This document shows positions 5,825-40,430 of a DNA stretch of 44,612 bases, piece after piece. The stretch's first letter is position 1, and each line of letters starts with the position of its first letter. The notes beneath the pieces are model-generated. The model did not search any database, had not been told where the DNA came from, and saw only the letters and a program-made list of their open reading frames with translations. Source of the DNA: Escherichia phage vb_EcoS_bov22_1; sequence record NC_073084.1. One strand, 5' to 3'. The position numbers were made by a program, and so were the translations under genes.

Positions 5825-6269
5825 GATCTGGACCTATTGCGTACAGGGCAATTTTCTTGTCGCTGGACAGAACGCGCCGGACTCGGGCCATATCCGCCGG
5901 ACCCAGCGGTCGGCTATCGGAATAGTAGCTGCCGTTCGCACGCCACGCTATCAGCACCAGATCTTTCCGGTCGATCTTAGACTGGCGGCCCTTCGGGCGC
6001 ACGTATTCCTCGGCCCGTTTGCAATGCTCGCGCAGACCTTCGGCAGTGATGCGGTTTAGTGCAACGCTGGTTGTGTATCCGGTGCGCTGCATAATCCCCA
6101 TCAATTCGAAAAGCAGTTCGAAGCGCTCCTCTAGCTCCTGGCGCACTTTCTTCTCACCTTCATATAGCGCCTGTTTGGTGTCCGCCAGCGCGTTCGCACG
6201 TTCGGCCTGTTCGCGGGCTTCGAGGCATTGCGCGGCCCAGTATGCTTTTTCTTCTTGTAAAATTTTCAT
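5811..6269 (-). CDS. hypothetical protein
   Basis: 152-aa ORF; GGAG RBS 9 nt upstream of ATG 6269; coupled to the upstream gene (stop 6270). Confidence 0.55.
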   Translation of the reverse strand: MKILQEEKAYWAAQCLEAREQAERANALADTKQALYEGEKKVRQELEERFELLFELMGIMQRTGYTTSVALNRITAEGLREHCKRAEEYVRPKGRQSKIDRKDLVLIAWRANGSYYSDSRPLGPADMARVRRVLSSDKKIALYAIGPDHAEE

Positions 6270-6512
6270 TTATTTAATCTCCGTAGTGCGAATCTCTTTG
6301 CGTGGAATAAATTTGCCATCCATCTCCACCCAGCAGACTCCGTATCGCCATTGGGTATTACGTCCTGTTTGCTCGGCATATACGGTCTTGCATCCGTAGC
6401 GTTCCGTGTAGTAAATAGCAGCGGTAGGAACGCAAATACAAACGGCAAACATGAGGGTGAGGATCACCCAAAATCGAAGGTCGCCGTCGTAGTCGAAAAA
6501 TAATGATTTCAT
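6270..6512 (-). CDS. small membrane protein
   Basis: 80 aa with one hydrophobic helix (FWVILTLMFAVCICVPTAAIYY); GGAGA RBS upstream of ATG 6512. Confidence 0.55.
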   Translation of the reverse strand: MKSLFFDYDGDLRFWVILTLMFAVCICVPTAAIYYTERYGCKTVYAEQTGRNTQWRYGVCWVEMDGKFIPRKEIRTTEIK

Positions 6513-6530
6513 CGTGTTGTCTCCAGGTAT

Positions 6531-20820: not shown

Positions 20821-20957
20821 GTGCGACTATCCGTGATATGCTGATGCACAACCGCTTTGAGATAGGCGGTCGGGTGTTTCGCAATTACTTCGTGGCGCGT
20901 GCCTGGGCGCGCCATATTGGCAAACCAGAGGGGGCAATACGATGCTACACGATTTGA
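20817..20957 (+). CDS. small hypothetical protein
   Basis: 46-aa ORF bridging two genes with ATGA coupling; weak support. Confidence 0.3.
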   Translation: MSATIRDMLMHNRFEIGGRVFRNYFVARAWARHIGKPEGAIRCYTI

Positions 20958-21229
20958 TTTATTGGTTTGGTATGGCCAGCATGTTATGCCTGATCACGGC
21001 AGGGCTTGGCGCGATATGGGTATTCCTGGTATGGCCCGCGGTGGAAGCTGCCAGTATTACCCGCATGACGTTCCAGATATACAAGCGCCGTGGCATCACG
21101 GAGCACCCGACCAGGTTGCGCATGTGGTGGCTATGGTATCGGGATATGATAGGGGGCCGGATGTTCGAGGCCGTCCGATCGGAAGGGTGGGAGTGGAAAG
21201 GCGTCGGCAAGTGGTCCATTTTCGATTAA
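20942..21229 (+). CDS. small membrane protein
   Basis: 95 aa; GAGGGGG RBS; N-terminal transmembrane helix. Confidence 0.5.
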   Translation: MLHDLIYWFGMASMLCLITAGLGAIWVFLVWPAVEAASITRMTFQIYKRRGITEHPTRLRMWWLWYRDMIGGRMFEAVRSEGWEWKGVGKWSIFD

Positions 21230-21247
21230 TTATGCAAGCGTGATATA

Positions 21248-21282
21248 GTCCCAGTGAGCTAAAACTTACTGGGACTTTTTTT
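21248..21282 (+). terminator. terminator-like hairpin with T-run
   Basis: gtcccagt ... actgggac stem followed by T7, ending at the ATG of the next gene. Confidence 0.45.
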
Positions 21283-21573
21283 ATGGATAAGCTAAACGAG
21301 TGGTTATTTGCCATCGCATGTCTGGCTGGCGGCTTCGTAGGCGCACGCATTCATGGTGAGGCTACGAAGGGGCCGCTAAACTTTGTTTTGTATGTTGTAG
21401 TTGGCTTCCTGTGTGCCATATTTGGCGCACCGGCTATCGCTGAGTGGGCTGGTTTGTCGGGTGAGCGCACTGTCGCCGGTTTAGGCTTCGTAACCGCGAT
21501 CTTCTGGATGCCAATCGCCGACCGGATCAGGGAGACTATTGCGTCGTTCCGACTTCCGGGGGGTGCAAAATGA
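21283..21573 (+). CDS. holin-like membrane protein (three predicted TM helices)
   Basis: 96 aa, three hydrophobic helices; upstream of the endolysin; no recognisable SD. Confidence 0.55.
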   Translation: MDKLNEWLFAIACLAGGFVGARIHGEATKGPLNFVLYVVVGFLCAIFGAPAIAEWAGLSGERTVAGLGFVTAIFWMPIADRIRETIASFRLPGGAK

Positions 21574-21815
21574 TTATCTCCGTCCTGTTGTTTGTTATCA
21601 TCGGGGCTTCGTCCCTGTTTAACGTGTATGCGCCGTCCGTCCGGGATGGCATTTTCGGTCGGGTGCTGTATCTGTTAACGGCAATGGTCTGTGTTATCGG
21701 ATTGTTGCAAACAGGAGACGTATCTGATACCACCTGGACCGCGTTAATCTGGCTGTTTGCATTGCGCACGCTGCGTAATGCTGTTTTGAATGGGGTAAAA
21801 CATGCGATTCAGTGA
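21570..21815 (+). CDS. second holin/antiholin-like membrane protein (two TM helices)
   Basis: 81 aa; GGGGTG RBS; ATGA coupling. Confidence 0.5.
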   Translation: MIISVLLFVIIGASSLFNVYAPSVRDGIFGRVLYLLTAMVCVIGLLQTGDVSDTTWTALIWLFALRTLRNAVLNGVKHAIQ

Positions 21816-22293
21816 CAACGGTCTGAGATTTACGGCAGCATGGGAGCAATTCAGCCCAGTGCCGTATTTCGCGACTAAGAAAGAGCAGGCCCGCGGCCTG
21901 TATACCTGGGGCTATGGTCACACCGGCACTAATCCGCCGCGGAGCATTACCCGTGCGGAGGCACTGGAGCTACTCAAGCGCGATGTGGTGTATGCCGAGA
22001 ACTGGGTGAACAAGTACGCGCATAAGAGCATTAACCAGGCGCAATTCGACGCGCTGGTGGACCTGGTTATCAATGCAGGTCAAGGTCCGATCGTACCGGA
22101 TGACGTCGCGAATGATTTCGATGATGCGGTCCGCCTGGGCGACTGGGCTAAGGTACGTGCTACTCTGCCGCAGTTCCGCAAGCAAGGTGGCGAAGTGCTT
22201 AAGGGTCTGGTGCGCCGTGCAATCGGCAGACAGGCGTTGTTTGATGGTAAGCAGTGGGACGTTGCCGAGAAAATCGGGCGTAACGCAGCATAA
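21802..22293 (+). CDS. endolysin (lysozyme, glycoside hydrolase family 24-like)
   Basis: AAWEQF ... GLYTWGYGHTG region resembles the T4-lysozyme-type catalytic core; directly follows the holin-like genes. Confidence 0.75.
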   Translation: MRFSDNGLRFTAAWEQFSPVPYFATKKEQARGLYTWGYGHTGTNPPRSITRAEALELLKRDVVYAENWVNKYAHKSINQAQFDALVDLVINAGQGPIVPDDVANDFDDAVRLGDWAKVRATLPQFRKQGGEVLKGLVRRAIGRQALFDGKQWDVAEKIGRNAA

Positions 22294-22308: not shown

Positions 22309-22476
22309 ATGTTAAAAAGCATTCTTGATCATAACGCTGACGCGCTCGCAGCGCTGGCTAAAACCGAAGACCCTGGCGCACGCGCTATCATCGCGGACAC
22401 TATCAGCCATGCAGGCGTCTTTGACGCGAAGCTGCCTAGCCCGCCGCCACAGGAAGAATCTGGCCCAGTGACGTAA
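22309..22476 (+). CDS. small hypothetical protein
   Basis: 55-aa ORF with GAGGAA RBS, ends at a terminator. Confidence 0.4.
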   Translation: MLKSILDHNADALAALAKTEDPGARAIIADTISHAGVFDAKLPSPPPQEESGPVT

Positions 22477-22483
22477 ACAATCA

Positions 22484-22510
22484 AGCCCGGTTAATTCCGG
22501 GCTTTTTATT
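22484..22510 (+). terminator. rho-independent terminator
   Basis: agcccgg-ttaatt-ccgggct followed by T5. Confidence 0.6.
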
Positions 22511-22571: not shown

Positions 22572-22652
22572 ATGGCACGTAAAGATATTTGGGTATTAGC
22601 GATCTGGACCACCGCGGCTTTTATCGGCATGGTTATTTGCGAATTGATATAG
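22572..22652 (+). CDS. 26-aa hydrophobic micropeptide (candidate)
   Basis: Strong GGAGGAG RBS 7 nt upstream of ATG; MARKDIWVLAIWTTAAFIGMVICELI is a single TM-like helix; a promoter-like TTGACT precedes it. Confidence 0.3.
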   Translation: MARKDIWVLAIWTTAAFIGMVICELI

Positions 22653-24065: not shown

Positions 24066-24182
24066 ACCGCATAGCCTGCCGATTTGGTGGGCTTTTTTGT
24101 GCCTGTTATAATCCCCCTTAGATGGCAGGGCCGTCTCCTATGTTGCCGATGGTCGGCGCATATGAACAAAAGGGCTTATATC

Positions 24183-26129: not shown

Positions 26130-27650
26130 ATGACCGTTAACGTTGACAACCAGCACCCGCTCTATGCGCGCATTGCGCCAGAGTGGAAGATGATCCGCGA
26201 TTGTGTAGCAGGGGAGCGCGCCGTGAAGGCGTGCGGCCCTTTGTACCTGCCTCATCCCGCCAGTGGCGACAATACTGACCCGAAAGCACGGGCGCGGTAT
26301 AAGGCGTACAAGCAACGCGCGGTATTCCTGAACGCCACCGCCCGCACACTAAACGCGCTGTTAGGCGTCGCCTTTGCAAAACCTGTAAGTCTGGACCTTT
26401 CCGGGGTGATGGCTGACCTGATTGACGACGTAGACGGCAGCGGTATGCCATTGCCGCAACTTCTGCGCGGTGCTATGTCGGAAGTTCTGCAATCGGGACG
26501 CGCGGGCTTTATGGTGGACTACGACCGCCAGGCTAACTTTGATGAACTGGGTAACGTAGTGCCACAGACAGCCGCCGAGATGGCGGCACACCGACCGCTT
26601 ATCCGCCTGTATACGGCAGAGCAGATCATCAACTGGCGGCAGACCCACGGCGTCGATACGCTAATTGTGCTGAAGGAAACGGACGAAATCAGCACCGAAG
26701 ACCCTGACGATTTCGCAAACCACGAAGTAACAATCTGGACCGAGCTTCGCATGATTGACGGCAAGGCACACGCCCGCCGCTGGTTTTACAACGCGGACAC
26801 GTCCGAAGTGAAGATGGACTTGCCGCGAGGCTTCACCAGAACCGATCTTGTGCCGTTGGTGGATGCTTCCGGTAATGCGCTTACGCAACTACCGTTTTGC
26901 TGGTGCGGTGCGGTGGACAACAACGCAACGCCTGACGCCGCTCCGCTGGCGGATATCGCATCCATCAACATTAAGCACTACAACGCCGAAGCGGACGTCG
27001 CCGAGATCGCGCACATCGTGGGTCAGCCTACCCTGGTTGCGACGGGCTTGACTCAATCATGGGCTGACAAGAACCTGAAGGGAGGCATTGCCCTCGGTGC
27101 GACTAAGGGCGTTATCCTGGGCCAGAACATGGACGCTAAACTGATCCAGGCGGAGGAGCGCAACTTGTCGGTTGCACTGTGTGAGCGTCGCGAATTGCAA
27201 ATGGCTAAACTTGGCGCGGCCCTGGTCGAGAAGGGGACCGCACCTAAGACGGCAACCGAGGCGGCCTACGATGCGCAGACTGATAACAGTATCCTGTCGC
27301 TTATTGCCGGTAACGTTGAGAAGGCTTTCAACCGTGCGCTGCAAATCGTCCAACTCTTCACCGGTGACACCGCCGACCAGCGTGTGACGCTGAATAAGTT
27401 CTACACCGAGATCACGGTTGATGCGCAGCTTATGACCGCGATGATGTCGGGTGTGCAGACGGGTACGGTCCGCCTGGCTGATTTCATCAAGTGGATGATG
27501 GCGCAGGGTGTCATCGACGACTCGCAAACCGTCGAGCAGGTTGAAGACGAATTGCGGAATCAGAATCCATTGCCTCAAATGTCCCCTGATGCGGTAGAAT
27601 CTACCGAAGAAGACCCGGACAAGGTAGCGGACAATGGCGAAGACAATTAA
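26130..27650 (+). CDS. portal protein
   Basis: 506 aa immediately after terL, AAGGAAA RBS; acidic C-terminus; call rests on position and size. Confidence 0.7.
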   Translation: MTVNVDNQHPLYARIAPEWKMIRDCVAGERAVKACGPLYLPHPASGDNTDPKARARYKAYKQRAVFLNATARTLNALLGVAFAKPVSLDLSGVMADLIDDVDGSGMPLPQLLRGAMSEVLQSGRAGFMVDYDRQANFDELGNVVPQTAAEMAAHRPLIRLYTAEQIINWRQTHGVDTLIVLKETDEISTEDPDDFANHEVTIWTELRMIDGKAHARRWFYNADTSEVKMDLPRGFTRTDLVPLVDASGNALTQLPFCWCGAVDNNATPDAAPLADIASINIKHYNAEADVAEIAHIVGQPTLVATGLTQSWADKNLKGGIALGATKGVILGQNMDAKLIQAEERNLSVALCERRELQMAKLGAALVEKGTAPKTATEAAYDAQTDNSILSLIAGNVEKAFNRALQIVQLFTGDTADQRVTLNKFYTEITVDAQLMTAMMSGVQTGTVRLADFIKWMMAQGVIDDSQTVEQVEDELRNQNPLPQMSPDAVESTEEDPDKVADNGEDN

Positions 27651-28737
27651 TCAACATTTGGCGGATCGAATGATTCGCCGTCACATCTTCACCCAGCGCC
27701 TGAGCAATGATCAGGCGCGGAGGGTGCTGGCTATGTGGGAGAAGTTCCGGCCCACTTTACTTGGTAAGCTGACCGAGTTACTTGATGGCAAAAAGTCCAT
27801 GAGCAACAAGGCACTTACCACACTGTTAACTCAACTCGACAAGACCGTCAAAACGGAACTACGCGCCGAGTTTAAAGTGCTGGCGGAGAGCCTTCAGGAG
27901 TTCGCCGACGCCGAGGCTAATTATCTAGCAGACACACTAACGGCAGCGATCCAGCCCGCTGTCGCCGTACCGGCTGTTGAAGTAGTTGGCGTTGTTACCG
28001 GCGCGCAGATTGCAGCGACGGCAATGAAAAACCCGTTCCAGGGTAATACTATGATGCAATGGCCTGATTCCCTTTCCGAGTGGACCAGGACGCAGATCGG
28101 CAATCAGGTGCGCGCCGGATTCATCCAGGGAAAGCCAACGATGGAAATTATCGCGGACGTGAGGCGCGCGCTAGGCGGTCGTAGTGCGCAAGCCATCTCA
28201 AGCGTTGTTAAGTCCGCAGTCAACCACTATGCGGCGACCGCCCGCGAACTAATGGTAAAAGCAAATGACGATATTCTCGAAGGTCGCCAATGGTTATCTA
28301 CATTGGACACGCATACTTCTCCCATGTGCCAGCTACGCGATCGCCTGTTTTATCCGGTTGATGTTACTCCCGATACGAAAGGGAAGCGCGGCGGGAAAGT
28401 GGTGGCTGGATCACAATATGGCGCTGGTCCGGGCAAGCTACATTATTGCTGCCGTTCGACGGAGACGTGGAAAGTCAAAGGTATGGAAGATTGGCCCAGT
28501 GGTAAGCGTCCGGCACTGAAGGCTGACGCAGGCAGATTGCTGAGTGAGCAGGTAGACGCGCAGACTGATTTCTTCTCATGGGTGCAGCGCCAGCCGCGCC
28601 ATATCCTGGAAGAATTATATGGAGTGCAACGCGCCGACCAGATTATGCGCGGCGTGAAAGTGCCGAAGATGTTCACCGATTCTGGTGAACTGATGACTAT
28701 TGCACAGCTTAAAAACCGGGGGTTATGGCGTGATTAA
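27634..28737 (+). CDS. head morphogenesis protein (Mu F / SPP1 gp7-like minor head protein)
   Basis: LDTHTSPMCQ ... HYCCRS Cys motifs typical of the family; position after portal. Confidence 0.7.
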   Translation: MAKTINQHLADRMIRRHIFTQRLSNDQARRVLAMWEKFRPTLLGKLTELLDGKKSMSNKALTTLLTQLDKTVKTELRAEFKVLAESLQEFADAEANYLADTLTAAIQPAVAVPAVEVVGVVTGAQIAATAMKNPFQGNTMMQWPDSLSEWTRTQIGNQVRAGFIQGKPTMEIIADVRRALGGRSAQAISSVVKSAVNHYAATARELMVKANDDILEGRQWLSTLDTHTSPMCQLRDRLFYPVDVTPDTKGKRGGKVVAGSQYGAGPGKLHYCCRSTETWKVKGMEDWPSGKRPALKADAGRLLSEQVDAQTDFFSWVQRQPRHILEELYGVQRADQIMRGVKVPKMFTDSGELMTIAQLKNRGLWRD

Positions 28738-29059
28738 ATATGCAGCGATTGGGCTGGTTATCGGTCTGGCGGTAGGATTCTGGCTAGGTGACTCCTATCG
28801 CGCGGGCGTAGTGGCGGAGGCAGCGCAAGAAGCGCAAGCCCAAGCCCAACGGCAGCAAACTAAAGTTGTTGAGCGCTCCGTGCAGGCAGAACAAGCCCGC
28901 GACGTAGAATACCGGACTATCACGAAAGAGGTTGTTAAATATGTTACGCGCCCTAACCGCCCTGATTGTAGTTTTGATGCTGAGCGCGTGCGGATCAAGC
29001 AACGCGCCGTTGATGCCGCTAACGGAGTCGGCGCTGCGACCGCCGTGCAAGTTCGATAA
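28730..29059 (+). CDS. i-spanin (Rz-like)
   Basis: GTG start 28730; N-terminal TM helix IKYAAIGLVIGLAVGFW, Ala/Gln-rich periplasmic coiled region, C-terminal Cys; contains the overlapping lipoprotein gene in another frame. Confidence 0.55.
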   Translation: MIKYAAIGLVIGLAVGFWLGDSYRAGVVAEAAQEAQAQAQRQQTKVVERSVQAEQARDVEYRTITKEVVKYVTRPNRPDCSFDAERVRIKQRAVDAANGVGAATAVQVR

Positions 29060-29171
29060 CCCGTCCGCGGACCCCGACGAAGATTTGATGATTGACGTGA
29101 AAAATATGGAATGCGGGGCGAAGCTAAGGGCGCAGGTGCTGGAGTTGCAGCAAATAATTAAGGGGCCGTAA
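28941..29171 (+). CDS. o-spanin (Rz1-like lipoprotein)
   Basis: ATG 28941 with AAGAGG RBS; lipobox LMLSAC; Pro-rich mature region; embedded in the 3' part of the i-spanin gene. Confidence 0.6.
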   Translation: MLRALTALIVVLMLSACGSSNAPLMPLTESALRPPCKFDNPSADPDEDLMIDVKNMECGAKLRAQVLELQQIIKGP

Positions 29172-29184
29172 TGGCCCCTTTTTC
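29161..29184. terminator. bidirectional rho-independent terminator
   Basis: aggggccgtaatggcccct plus T-run, lying between convergent genes (ends 29171 and 29186). Confidence 0.6.
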
Positions 29185-29185
29185 G

Positions 29186-29950
29186 TTAGCGCGGAATGCC
29201 GCAAATCTCGTTAAGTGTCTTCACATCCAGCGCCACTGCCGTGGATTTTGGCTTGTCCGGGTACGGGATGAATTGCTCGACTTCAGGCCATGCCTTAATC
29301 AGCTTCTTGTCAGTATTGTGCAGGTCCAGCACACCGGTAACGGTCAACTTGAATGCGTCATACTTCGCACGCAATTCGCGGCGGGCCTGGTCGTTACGGT
29401 CCAGGCGCTTACAGAAGTCATGGTCCGCAGGGTAATCTGCGCGACCGCGAGGGAGATATATCGGCAGCGCTTTCCCGTCCTCGTCCACTTCGCACACTGA
29501 CGCGAGCATAACTGTCTCGAACCCCGGAACGATATCGCCGAGATCAGGCGCGAGCTTATTCATATATTTCTCTTCCCAGTATCCGCGATGTACGCGGTAT
29601 CGGCGACCGTCACCGCTCAAGGACAAGGTGCGAACATTTCCGCCTGCGTTGATTTCGAAAGTGGCGTCGTAAACGCTGCCGATACCTTTCGGGCGGTCGG
29701 TGTTATAACTATATGTCGCCTTGTTGGTGTATACACAGACGCCGTACATCTGCGACTGGTCGTCGCGAATTGCCTTGATATGCTCGCGGAGCGCTGCGAA
29801 CGTGCGAATGCCTTCCGGCATACAGTCCAGCGTTATTGCGTACGCCAGATCGCGTGAGTCCATCATGATTTGTTTGGCTTCGGTTGCGATTTCGTGGTCG
29901 CGCAGGATGTTAGATAGGATCTGATTTTTAATGTCTTTTGTCAGTCTCAT
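29186..29950 (-). CDS. hypothetical protein, reverse-oriented cassette gene 2
   Basis: 254 aa; GAGGA RBS 8 nt upstream of ATG 29950; no recognisable motifs. Confidence 0.6.
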   Translation of the reverse strand: MRLTKDIKNQILSNILRDHEIATEAKQIMMDSRDLAYAITLDCMPEGIRTFAALREHIKAIRDDQSQMYGVCVYTNKATYSYNTDRPKGIGSVYDATFEINAGGNVRTLSLSGDGRRYRVHRGYWEEKYMNKLAPDLGDIVPGFETVMLASVCEVDEDGKALPIYLPRGRADYPADHDFCKRLDRNDQARRELRAKYDAFKLTVTGVLDLHNTDKKLIKAWPEVEQFIPYPDKPKSTAVALDVKTLNEICGIPR

Positions 29951-29989
29951 TTTTGTGTCCTCATTATTGGGGCTTTCGCCCCGATTGGT

Positions 29990-30304
29990 TTAGTTAAATT
30001 TGATGTTGCCGCCGGTTGAGGTTAAGCGAGCACATACAGATTCAACGGCATCGACGCACATGAAATCGTTAAAGGCTTCGACCAGGGCGTTTATGAAAGA
30101 TGCCGGAACCAGGCCGCAAGCCGGATTATCGAATGTCGCGGAGTTGACCGCCGCTTTTGCCGCTTCAGAAGCATTCATGCTCTGGCACAGATTCAGCGCT
30201 TCCGCGTTACGCATTGCGTGAAAGGTAAAGGTATTCGCTACGGTAGCTTTATTGAAACGGGCCATTGCGGCGTCTACTGGAGTTGCTACGGTCATGTTAG
30301 TCAT
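29990..30304 (-). CDS. hypothetical protein, reverse-oriented cassette gene 1
   Basis: 104 aa from ATG 30304 with AAGGAAAA RBS (the track ORF extends to 30364 without an RBS). Confidence 0.55.
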   Translation of the reverse strand: MTNMTVATPVDAAMARFNKATVANTFTFHAMRNAEALNLCQSMNASEAAKAAVNSATFDNPACGLVPASFINALVEAFNDFMCVDAVESVCARLTSTGGNIKFN

Positions 30305-30339
30305 TTTGTTTTCCTTCATATCTCTGTTGGTGTGCAACC

Positions 30340-30369
30340 AATATACTGCAACCAACATCCGCAATGCAA
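30340..30369 (-). promoter_or_regulatory. sigma70-like promoter (minus strand) for the reverse cassette
   Basis: Minus strand TTGCAT-18 nt-TATATTGGTTGCACACCAACAG, matching the promoter at 19283. Confidence 0.4.
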
Positions 30370-39045: not shown

Positions 39046-39645
39046 ATGTCACAAGGTACAATCATACTAGCGACGGGGCGTAGGACCGTATTAGGCACGG
39101 GAACCGCGTTCTTGAGCGAGATCGGTAAGGTCTGCGTATTTGCCCGCATCGACGGCAACGACTACGCACAAAAAATTGAGAAGTTCAACCATAACGAGTC
39201 CATCACCCTAGTGGACCCGTGGGCCGGTCCAAATTATACCGGCGAGGCTTATGAGCTACTCGAAGCATACGACCCGAGGACCAACGAATGGCCATATTAC
39301 TGGCACATGCAATTGCAAGGTGGCGGAGACGTGCAGTTGGCCTTCCGGTCAGAGGAATTGCAATTTGGTAACGGTTACGGTCAAAACATTGCGGATGGCC
39401 CGAACGCCGAAACGAAACAGTTCCCCATGCAATTCATCGGACTGACTACTGACAAGTGGTGCAATCCTAAACTGGTGTACAACTTCCTTCGCGGGCACTT
39501 CGTAAAGCCGTTTGTTGCCACCGCGCCAGATGGCGAAAAAGGTTTATTCGTGGTAGAGCGTTCGAGCTTGTCGTACACTGACAACGGACACCGCACGGCA
39601 ACGGTATCCGCCACCCTCAAGACCGCTATTGGATTCGTAAGATGA
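39046..39645 (+). CDS. minor tail protein (lambda gpM position)
   Basis: 200 aa from ATG 39046; alternative coupled ATG at 39004 overlaps the tape-measure stop; call by gene order. Confidence 0.55.
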   Translation: MSQGTIILATGRRTVLGTGTAFLSEIGKVCVFARIDGNDYAQKIEKFNHNESITLVDPWAGPNYTGEAYELLEAYDPRTNEWPYYWHMQLQGGGDVQLAFRSEELQFGNGYGQNIADGPNAETKQFPMQFIGLTTDKWCNPKLVYNFLRGHFVKPFVATAPDGEKGLFVVERSSLSYTDNGHRTATVSATLKTAIGFVR

Positions 39646-40430
39646 ATAAACTTTATCGCGAGGCGACACGCTTCGACCCATCGGGCCGCGTTCGCCTGAT
39701 TCACATTGACGCGCAGGACGTGGAACCGGGCGACGGCGCGATCGGCGCGGGTCATCACTATTTTCACTATTGCTTTATTCCGCACACTGCCGAGGATATC
39801 GCCGCAGCAGGCGGAGACGAGGACAAGCTAAAGCCCAAGTCTATCTTCTTCGGCGGGCAGGAATTCGAATTTTGGCCCTTCGATCTGTCTGGCCTTAACT
39901 TCTCTACATCAACGGCAGCAGAACCGCAGCTAACCCTCGTTGATATTGGCGGCATTATAACCCGGCTGTCGCTGAATCATGACCAGCTACTGGGCGCGAA
40001 GGTTGAGATCATTGATACGTTCGCGAAGTTCCTGGATAACGGATCGGACCCGGACCCGACGCAAAAACGTGTCCAGGAGTATTACATCGACTCACAGGTC
40101 GGGCGCAATCCGGGCAAGCAGATCACCTTCGCGCTATCCTCCCCCGCGGATATGGAGGGGCAAGTAGTACCCCGCCGCCAGATCATGAACATGTGCGAAT
40201 GGGCGCTCAATGGGAAGTACGCCAGCGGGGATGGTTGCACATGGAACCTTGCACAGCCGGGCATCAAATATTACGACGAGCGCGGAAACGAAGTTATCGC
40301 GATGAATATGGACCGATGCGGCGGCTGTTTGTCCGACTGTTATCTTCGTTTTGGGCAAGGTCTGGCGGACCCTAAAGCGGCGGTGCTGGACTTCGGCGGT
40401 TTTCCAGGGTCCAAATTAATTAAGGGGTAG
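39642..40430 (+). CDS. minor tail protein L-like (tail tip, Cys cluster)
   Basis: 262 aa; C-terminal CGGCLSDC cluster as in lambda gpL; ATGA coupling. Confidence 0.7.
   Translation: MNKLYREATRFDPSGRVRLIHIDAQDVEPGDGAIGAGHHYFHYCFIPHTAEDIAAAGGDEDKLKPKSIFFGGQEFEFWPFDLSGLNFSTSTAAEPQLTLVDIGGIITRLSLNHDQLLGAKVEIIDTFAKFLDNGSDPDPTQKRVQEYYIDSQVGRNPGKQITFALSSPADMEGQVVPRRQIMNMCEWALNGKYASGDGCTWNLAQPGIKYYDERGNEVIAMNMDRCGGCLSDCYLRFGQGLADPKAAVLDFGGFPGSKLIKG

Follow-up and report, generated by a model that had tools for sequence, protein, structure and literature searches.

The overlapping genes at 28730-29171 of the window, the 44,612-nucleotide sequence of Escherichia phage vb_EcoS_bov22_1 (NC_073084.1), very probably encode a two-component Dhillonvirus spanin of the Jersey family, in the short EP23 subfamily with overlapped architecture. 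Spanin function is assigned on sequence features and family membership. The pair is not new, being already catalogued in the family lists of Kongari et al. 2018 and in the annotation of phage KarlBarth. A first-pass annotation had placed a spanin pair between exactly these limits; the i-spanin GTG begins at 28730 and the lipoprotein stop codon ends at 29171, and a membrane helix, a lipobox, matches to PHROG spanin families and purifying selection in both reading frames bear the identification out. The features of interest are listed here.

21283-21573, + strand, holin (phrog_2359 at 4.9e-32)
21570-21815, + strand, second holin (phrog_2508 at 1.7e-27)
21802-22293, + strand, soluble lysozyme-type endolysin (phrog_7 at 2e-35; PF00959 at 1.1e-20)
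24073-24112, + strand, hairpin at 24073-24093 followed by a promoter-like site, TTGGTG-17-TATAAT, with TG at -15/-14
27634-28737, + strand, head morphogenesis gene, SPP1 gp7 / Mu F-like (phrog_241 at 1.3e-117)
28730-29059, + strand, i-spanin gene, 109 aa, GTG start, N-terminal membrane helix (phrog_2536 'Rz-like spanin', E 5e-36)
28941-29171, + strand in the +1 frame, o-spanin gene, 76 aa, ATG start (phrog_5672 at 2.4e-26, phrog_1267 at 4.4e-12)
29160-29185, no strand assigned, hairpin terminator predicted from the sequence, with an 8-bp G+C stem, the loop GTAAT and then TTTTT

The i-spanin is hydrophobic at residues 3-19 or thereabouts (Kyte-Doolittle 2.33 over 15 residues) and has no second hydrophobic stretch, in agreement with the N-terminal transmembrane helix that had been proposed for an Rz-like gene here; all 17 Dhillonvirus sequences retain this segment. 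Beyond it the protein is rich in Ala, Gln, Glu and Arg and carries a single periplasmic cysteine, Cys80. A single-sequence AlphaFold2 model has helices at 3-72 and 84-97 with a break between them; the mean pLDDT is 59, so this helix-linker-helix layout is indicative only. It agrees with the two helices described for the EP23 subfamily in PMC6139136. At its GTG start the gene overlaps the end of the head morphogenesis gene (TGA stop, 28735-28737) in the form GTGA, an arrangement common to all the Dhillonvirus sequences, with a run GGGGG 7 nt upstream. A longer version of the gene, from a TTG at 28700, was considered and set aside; the protein would gain 10 residues ahead of its membrane helix, with no essential change.

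The o-spanin begins with the signal peptide MLRALTALIVVLMLSAC-GSS. The lipoprotein gene with lipobox that had been reported is indeed present: the lipobox is LSAC, Cys17 is the predicted lipidation site and Gly, not Asp, occupies the +2 position. L(S/T)AC or MSAC is found in 17 of 17 Dhillonvirus sequences. The mature protein has 7 Pro in 60 residues and two periplasmic cysteines, Cys36 and Cys58, and the gene has a Shine-Dalgarno-like AGAGG 9 nt upstream of its ATG. The first-pass annotation described this gene as out-of-frame and embedded. The first term is correct, the o-spanin being read in the +1 frame relative to the i-spanin, but the second is wrong; the genes overlap, sharing 119 nt, and the o-spanin runs 112 nt past the i-spanin stop.

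Conservation was assessed over 17 distinct Dhillonvirus sequences. Every one retains the membrane helix and the lipobox, has its genes overlapping by either 98 or 119 nt and carries a stop codon within the loop of the hairpin. Where only the i-spanin is encoded, nucleotide diversity is highest at the third codon positions of its frame (0.22 against 0.076 and 0.037); where only the o-spanin is encoded the same holds for the o-frame (0.231 against 0.099 and 0.028), and in the shared part diversity is divided between both frames. Both reading frames show codon-position signs of purifying selection, and the pair is more than chance. Two ORFs on the minus strand, 28784-29050 and 28795-28998, were rejected, the codon-position pattern fitting two frames on the plus strand. 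In an alignment of three Dhillonvirus sequences, Serratia phage Tsm2 and three IMG/VR contigs (L023-L025) the one i-spanin cysteine and the two periplasmic o-spanin cysteines are invariant, and the i-spanin cysteine is also present in Jerseyvirus and Bas75.

The window belongs to Dhillonvirus and is 100% identical to Escherichia phage vb_EcoS_bov11C2 over the 1.9 kb compared. Homologues of both spanin proteins occur in approximately 650 phage records, and tblastn matches in Jerseyvirus and K1G-like phages range from 35 to 59% identity. Both components are significantly similar to members of the Jersey family and of PHROG 2536 and 5672; the EP23 i-spanin is 97% identical to that of the window, and in the BASEL phage KarlBarth an i-spanin and an o-spanin are annotated at exactly the corresponding spot. 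A Pfam search taken to E of 1 matched neither protein, and an NCBIfam scan of both gave nothing relevant, the sole matches being signal-peptide noise at E of about 0.08. By sequence the pair is therefore not of the lambda Rz or Rz1 family, and no relationship to those proteins is detectable. The corresponding Pfam families are Phage_lysis and Rz1 lipoprotein, respectively. In L025, a lambda-like viral contig, both PHROG spanin families lie directly after a holin-holin-endolysin set, and this canonical cassette links the spanin family with lysis whatever its place in the window. The overlapped Jersey family, as listed by Kongari et al. 2018 (BMC Bioinformatics 19:326, PMC6139136), includes EP23, HK578, JL1, SSL-2009a and SO-1, and the same source describes the o-spanin cysteines as conserved in the family.

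The PHROG and PF00959 matches confirm that the holins and endolysin occupy 21283-22293, as had been proposed. The spanins were said to lie some 6.5 kb away, after the head morphogenesis gene; from the endolysin end at 22293 to the i-spanin start at 28730 is 6437 nt, and the head morphogenesis gene is directly upstream of the pair. Seven annotated genes intervene (gp57, phosphoesterase, gp59, terS, terL, portal and head morphogenesis). The canonical lysis cassette, in which spanins follow directly after holin and endolysin, is not found in the window, and the ORF next after the endolysin, at 22309-22476, lacks both a membrane helix and a lipobox. The order is instead two holins, endolysin, terminase, portal, head morphogenesis, spanins and scaffold. 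This split layout is shared with Jerseyvirus, a K1G-like phage and Serratia phage Tsm2; individual examples are KarlBarth and Shelanagig, both with annotated i- and o-spanin, and Bas75. That the pair lies between head morphogenesis and scaffold is a matter of inheritance; such a place is standard for Dhillonvirus and Guernseyvirinae-type siphophages and reflects the location of the cassette in this lineage, not a special mechanism. In the literature on Dhillonvirus and Jerseyvirus we found no explicit remark on spanin position, only uncommented gene lists with gene numbers, and the searched passages of PMC6139136 make no mention of spanin gene location in these genomes.

The lipoprotein stop codon was stated to sit inside a bidirectional terminator. 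Its location is as described: the hairpin AAGGGGCC-GTAAT-GGCCCCTT at 29160-29180 holds the o-spanin TAA (29169-29171) in its loop. It is conserved in the 17 Dhillonvirus sequences, with the outer pair changed on both sides from A-T to G-C. A convergent gene, Nmad5, ends at 29186 on the minus strand, so that the terminator at 29160-29185 faces it also. Bidirectional action is plausible since the hairpin folds on both strands, but the terminator is asymmetric and weaker on the minus strand, where the folding energy is -16.0 kcal/mol as opposed to -18.9 kcal/mol (z -3.6) on the plus strand, and the U tract is poorer and interrupted.

Is the pair then expressed apart from the other lysis genes? 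Hairpin terminators are predicted at 21247-21276, 22483-22504, 24073-24093 and 29160-29180, the first two bracketing the holin-holin-endolysin set. Extended -10-like motifs, TGNTATA(A/T/G)T, occur at 21241, 22672 and 24104; they were first spotted by eye and then found by a pattern search, which gave four matches, about as many as chance would produce over the entire window. That they cluster at intergenic sites on one strand and are conserved is suggestive of a promoter role, and suggestive only. A generic sigma-70 scan returned 9 promoter-like sites against 8.2 in shuffled sequence, and neither the holin start nor the terS start had one immediately upstream. The TTGGTG-17-TATAAT motif is identical in 10 Dhillonvirus sequences, and we infer 24073-24112 to be the predicted start of a unit comprising terS, terL, portal, head morphogenesis and spanin genes. 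The first-pass annotation took the split module to imply separate timing or regulation of the spanins. Separate regulation is partly supported: the hairpins and -10-like motifs put the spanins at the end of this predicted terminase-to-head-morphogenesis unit, a different one from the holin-endolysin unit. But the implication as a whole goes beyond the evidence; the units are adjacent on one strand and carry a promoter-like motif of one kind. A regulatory motif common to the spanin and holin units of Jersey-like phages was looked for, but those on either side of the spanin unit are confined to it. Work on lambda Rz/Rz1 and Kongari 2018 (PMC6139136) describe spanins as accumulating in advance and staying inert until the endolysin removes the peptidoglycan, and co-timing with the holin is therefore not needed.

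By analogy with known spanins, the N-terminal helix of the 109-aa i-spanin would anchor it in the inner membrane, with a mostly helical domain reaching into the periplasm. The 76-aa o-spanin would be lipidated at Cys17 and, because the +2 residue is Gly and not Asp, sorted to the outer membrane. Binding between the two would involve their C-terminal parts, and covalent dimers probably form through the invariant periplasmic cysteines; the complex would span the periplasm, restrained by the mesh of peptidoglycan. After the holins had let out the soluble lysozyme and the wall had been broken down, such complexes would collapse, fusing the inner membrane with the outer and completing lysis. The genes are predicted to be the last two cistrons of a late unit starting just before the small terminase gene, with translation of the i-spanin probably coupled to that of the head morphogenesis gene; the putative terminator closing the unit holds the o-spanin stop in its loop.

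Could the placement itself be functional, with expression of the packaging and head operon tying the completion of lysis to the morphogenesis genes, or with translational coupling setting the spanin dose? We consider this unlikely. The layout is conserved across several genera, the GTGA overlap is constant within Dhillonvirus and the predicted spanin unit is separate from that of the holins and endolysin, but descent explains such conservation equally well. In Jersey-like phages the pair is uncoupled from the head morphogenesis gene, lying behind its own terminator and an intergenic region, and relatives with a canonical cassette exist (L025). Dose and timing are also loosely constrained because spanins stay inactive as long as the wall is intact (PMC6139136). 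That selection has wired the final lysis step to particle-assembly gene expression through this conserved, coupled placement is very unlikely; were it so, envelope rupture would not be completed unless the morphogenesis operon was expressed.

The genes lie between those for head morphogenesis and scaffold, and both proteins might be head-assembly or virion components. A 102-aa homologue that is 90% identical to the i-spanin, EE09 CDS34, was detected by LC-MS/MS in a phage lysate, and its authors judged it likely to be structural on account of gene location (PMC10673088). That lysate, however, was only 0.2 μm filtered and also contained endolysin, terminase and phosphoesterase, and CDS34 was represented by a single peptide. 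A membrane anchor with a lipoprotein partner is the signature of a spanin, PHROG places both proteins in lysis and both families occur in the canonical lysis cassette of L025, which leaves a virion role most improbable. It is scarcely credible, too, that the pair is merely spanin-like, a membrane protein and lipoprotein with some other envelope role such as superinfection exclusion: Cor/Llp-type phage lipoproteins exist, a separate small gene near the tail fibre genes is labelled 'lipoprotein' (MT884012.2) or 'super-infection exclusion protein' (EE09) and Pfam matches are lacking for our pair, but the overlapped genes, invariant cysteines and family membership all fit spanins (PMC6139136), the pair directly follows an endolysin in L025 and no alternative spanin candidate was noticed beside the endolysin in the window (next ORF 22309-22476).

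As a Jersey family spanin the pair can be set against known systems. It shares with the EP23 subfamily the genus, the overlapped architecture, a short i-spanin and the conserved o-spanin cysteines (PMC6139136); there is no substantive difference and the window represents a further isolate. In common with lambda Rz/Rz1 it combines a type II inner-membrane protein and an outer-membrane lipoprotein encoded in different frames of shared DNA, and the periplasmic cysteines and a last-step role in lysis are probably also alike. The lambda Rz1 gene lies wholly inside Rz, immediately after S and R, whereas the window pair is overlapped and 6.4 kb from the endolysin. P2 LysB/LysC sit inside the P2 lysis cassette. 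Their architecture, like that of the window pair, is the classic overlapped one, according to the tables of Kongari 2018 (PMC6139136), and they are listed as a different spanin family. The window o-spanin is longer than Rz1 and its C-terminal part may be helical; two helices are described for the Jersey family in the same paper. T4 PseT.3/PseT.2 and FelixO1-like spanins likewise lie apart from holin and endolysin (PMC6139136, Fig. 8 legend; PMC4319497). The T4 o-spanin has a C-terminal helix, as the window o-spanin may, and two essential cysteines. The T4 spanin genes are separated and of another family, whereas those in the window overlap, and all T4 lysis genes are dispersed, while in the window the holins and endolysin remain one cassette.

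The main value of these observations is for annotation; they hold nothing unexpected for lysis biology. Annotators aware that spanins stand between head morphogenesis and scaffold throughout the lineage will avoid calling its phages 'spanin-less' in error, and the same knowledge is relevant to engineering therapeutic Dhillonvirus and Jerseyvirus phages that are lysis-defective or lysis-tuned. Because it lies in the head block the pair is often missed. The GenBank record identical to the window labels the i-spanin 'hypothetical' and leaves the o-spanin uncalled, and in RefSeq EP23 a 52-aa o-spanin is called from Met25, without the lipobox. We note that PHROG 5672 is a 47-position profile covering the C-terminal part of the o-spanin only.

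The stretch 28730-29171 of the window is well supported as a spanin pair. The genes at this locus are listed here.

Genes at the spanin locus
27634-28737, + strand: head morphogenesis gene, 367 residues; its TGA stop overlaps the i-spanin GTG as GTGA
28730-29059, + strand: i-spanin (inner-membrane component), GTG start, 109 residues (ORF list, sequence)
28941-29171, + strand, +1 frame: o-spanin (lipoprotein component), ATG start, 76 residues (ORF list, sequence)
29186-30364, - strand: Nmad5-domain gene (PF18757, 2e-60) and a 124-residue ORF, between the spanins and the scaffold gene

The first-pass annotation had described an Rz-like gene with an N-terminal membrane helix and an out-of-frame lipoprotein gene; the ORF list and sequence confirm the pair and show two overlapping + strand genes. 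Upstream of the i-spanin GTG, at a distance of 7 nt, is the run GGGGG. The sole hydrophobic stretch of the protein, IKYAAIGLVIGLAVGFWLG, covers residues 3-19 approximately; Ala, Val, Arg, Gln and Glu are abundant in the remainder, which has a single cysteine, Cys80. An AlphaFold2 single-sequence model, of low confidence (pLDDT 59), displays helices at 3-72 and 84-97 separated by a break. The o-spanin ATG is preceded at 9 nt by AGAGG, and the N-terminus, MLRALTALIVVLMLSAC-GSS, is a lipoprotein signal peptide with the lipobox LSAC, Cys17 and glycine at +2. The +2 rule for lipoprotein sorting is established and, because of this glycine, the protein is predicted to reach the outer membrane. The mature form carries seven prolines in 60 residues and two more cysteines.

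PHROG matches, all labelled 'Rz-like spanin', are phrog_2536 for i-spanin (E 5e-36) and phrog_5672 (2.4e-26) and phrog_1267 (4.4e-12) for o-spanin. Neither protein has a Pfam or NCBIfam match of note, so neither is related in sequence to lambda Rz or Rz1. Searches with tblastn find homologues of each in about 650 phage records, chiefly Salmonella Jerseyvirus and Escherichia Dhillonvirus and Kagunavirus. The Kongari et al. (2018) survey (PMC6139136) assigns both components of the Dhillonviruses EP23, HK578, JL1, SSL-2009a and SO-1 to the overlapped 'Jersey' family, describes the EP23-to-SO-1 group as a shorter subfamily with two helices, and notes two constant o-spanin cysteines. The family matches, the cysteines and, at low confidence, the i-spanin model of the window pair agree with that description. 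The lone i-spanin cysteine is invariant among the aligned sequences from Dhillonvirus, Serratia phage Tsm2, three IMG/VR contigs, Jerseyvirus and a K1G-like phage, as are the lipobox and both periplasmic cysteines of o-spanin across Dhillonvirus, Tsm2 and the three contigs.

The lipoprotein gene had been termed embedded. The two genes share 119 nt and o-spanin continues 112 nt beyond the i-spanin stop, so the architecture is rather 'overlapped'. GenBank and IMG/VR supplied 17 distinct Dhillonvirus versions of this region for comparison. All retain the GTG start, the membrane helix and a 76-residue ORF for a lipoprotein, its lipobox being L(S/T)AC or MSAC, and the overlap is either 98 or 119 nt. 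Per-column nucleotide diversity in the i-only part is highest at third positions of the i frame (0.22 versus 0.076 and 0.037). Third positions of the o frame are the most diverse where o-spanin is alone (0.231 versus 0.099 and 0.028), and in the shared part the diversity is divided between the frames. Both frames are therefore under purifying selection.

Could the pair, placed in the head gene block, instead encode head or virion proteins? In a proteomic study of the Dhillonvirus EE09, 'CDS34, hypothetical, 102 aa' was found by mass spectrometry in phage lysates and judged from its position as likely structural (PMC10673088). This protein, EE09_34 (OR756193, 21776-22084), is the 102-residue form of i-spanin, 90% identical to that of the window; its gene shows the same overlap with a 367-residue head morphogenesis gene and is followed by an unannotated 76-residue lipobox ORF. 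The lysates, however, were merely 0.2 μm filtered, likewise contained endolysin, terminase and phosphoesterase, and gave one single peptide for CDS34 (PMC10673088). We read the detection as a sign that CDS34 is made, but not of virion membership.

The identification as spanins leaves a divided lysis module. PHROG and Pfam confirm the holin pair and endolysin (21283-22293), and the separation from the spanins, previously put at about 6.5 kb, is 6437 nt between endolysin and i-spanin. In KarlBarth, a BASEL Dhillonvirus, the minor capsid (head morphogenesis) gene is immediately followed by genes annotated 'i-spanin' and 'o-spanin', with holin, holin and endolysin at the opposite end of the record. 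In the Jerseyvirus Shelanagig the spanins (6023-6518) lie between capsid morphogenesis/decoration and scaffold genes, and holin and endolysin at 39644-40400. The K1G-like phage Bas75 and Tsm2 have the same gene order and, on tblastn mapping, so does every locus spanning both regions. The PHROG families of a published Jerseyvirus, spanins 2536 and 5672 (Gp_009/010) and holins 2359 and 2508 (Gp_063/064) (PMC9409062), are exactly those of the window. Unlike the window, an IMG/VR contig with a lambda-like large terminase (L025) has members of the same two spanin families straight after holin-holin-endolysin, so a canonical cassette is another setting for this family. In FelixO1-like phages (PMC4319497) and in T4 (PMC6139136), too, spanin genes stand apart from the remaining lysis genes. 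The split layout is real, but inherited and widespread. Not unusual for this lineage, it can already be seen in curated annotations and in the 2018 survey.

The first-pass annotation took the split to imply separate timing or regulation. Four strong hairpins bear on this.

Hairpins followed by T-runs
21247-21276, + strand: just before the holin start; -20.8 kcal/mol, z -5.25
22483-22504, + strand: after the small gene following the endolysin; z -5.5
24073-24093, + strand: just before the small terminase gene
29160-29180, + strand: after o-spanin

The extended -10-like motif TGNTATA(A/T/G)T has only four matches in the 44.6-kb window (19303, 21241, 22672 and 24104), all + strand, intergenic and ahead of consecutive gene blocks; a generic sigma-70 scan picked up none of them. 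Of these, 21241, 22672 and 24104 are conserved across Dhillonviruses, and the 24104 element reads TTGGTG-17-TATAAT with TG at -15/-14. The head morphogenesis gene and the spanins have no promoter-like motif between them. From these signals we infer consecutive units comprising holins-endolysin-gp57, phosphoesterase-gp59, and terS-terL-portal-head morphogenesis-i-spanin-o-spanin, the spanins being the last predicted cistrons of the third; the GTGA overlap suggests that i-spanin is translationally coupled to the head morphogenesis gene. The regulatory reading thus has partial support: the signals favour a separate predicted transcription unit but not separate timing, as the units adjoin on one strand with the same type of signal. 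Spanin complexes accumulate and are inert until endolysin removes the peptidoglycan, so co-timing with the holin is not needed. In Jersey-like phages the pair is uncoupled from the head morphogenesis gene and is preceded by a terminator and intergenic region of its own; this speaks against conservation of a coupling mechanism. There the order is terminator, motif ATTCCAGTTATTCC, spanin unit, then GGAATATTCTGGAATAGTTGCC just before scaffold (Shelanagig, L004, 5700-6610; Bas75, L006, 5100-6070). The long flanking motif occurs only around the spanin unit, and the short one elsewhere in L004 just as look-alikes with one or two mismatches; they may be operators of late head promoters.

The hairpin after o-spanin, AAGGGGCC-GTAAT-GGCCCCTT followed by TTTTT, holds the TAA (29169-29171) within its loop, in line with the earlier claim that this stop lies inside a terminator. 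Its bidirectionality is less convincing: it folds with -18.9 kcal/mol on the + strand and -16.0 on the - strand, where the U tract is interrupted, although it could also serve the convergent gene ending at 29186. In all 17 Dhillonvirus versions the loop contains the stop codon, TAA or TGA, and among them the outer pair switches on both sides, A-T becoming G-C.

The 1.9 kb surrounding the spanins are 100% identical to four Dhillonvirus Escherichia phage genomes, for example vb_EcoS_bov11C2 (MT884012.2; window position = record position + 24106), and 94-95% identical to many more, including EP23, SSL-2009a and BASEL phages. Across Dhillonvirus loci the spanin proteins are 76-97% identical and the flanking head genes 95-99%; at the DNA level (28680-29180 against related loci L005, L015, L018 and L020) the values are 79-90% and 95-98%. 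The genus has two forms, i-spanin of 109 or 102 residues with an overlap of 119 or 98 nt. Together, the two forms and the lower identity could reflect faster evolution or cassette exchange. Other Dhillonviruses lack the 29186-30364 block or have a replacement for it, with flanking head genes still 95-99% identical, so the spanins adjoin a plasticity hotspot between head morphogenesis and scaffold genes.

The main value of the finding is as an annotation reminder, since gene calls in this group of phages often miss o-spanin or truncate it. It lacks annotation in MT884012.2 and EE09 (L029, 21643-21873); the RefSeq EP23 call (L001, 4014-4172) is a truncated 52 residues from Met25, and the Bas75 call (L006, 5839-5982) is also truncated, both losing the lipobox. 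The PHROG 5672 profile has only 47 positions, the C-terminal part alone, and therefore seems built from truncated calls. Annotation of the GenBank record identical to the window is weak in general: the portal gene (26130-27650) appears there as 'minor tail protein' and the head morphogenesis gene as 'capsid and scaffold protein'.

Near the lysis cassette, the -10-like TGATATAGT (21241) overlaps the 5' arm of the 21247-21276 hairpin, followed by T7 and at once the holin ATG (21283); the sole Shine-Dalgarno-like bases (GGGA) lie within the 3' arm. Read-through transcripts would terminate or hide the ribosome site, and a transcript starting from the motif, without the 5' arm, would do neither. 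Relatives keep this arrangement (21241-21285), and L021, the most diverged of them, has a compensating C/G insertion. Directly upstream is a 95-residue hydrophobic protein (20942-21229, phrog_2531), possibly another membrane protein involved in lysis or exclusion. Between the cassette terminator and the phosphoesterase gene, a 26-residue ORF, MARKDIWVLAIWTTAAFIGMVICELI (22572-22652), with a GGAGG ribosome site and a single hydrophobic helix, is present in some Dhillonviruses, absent from others and unannotated in the identical GenBank record.
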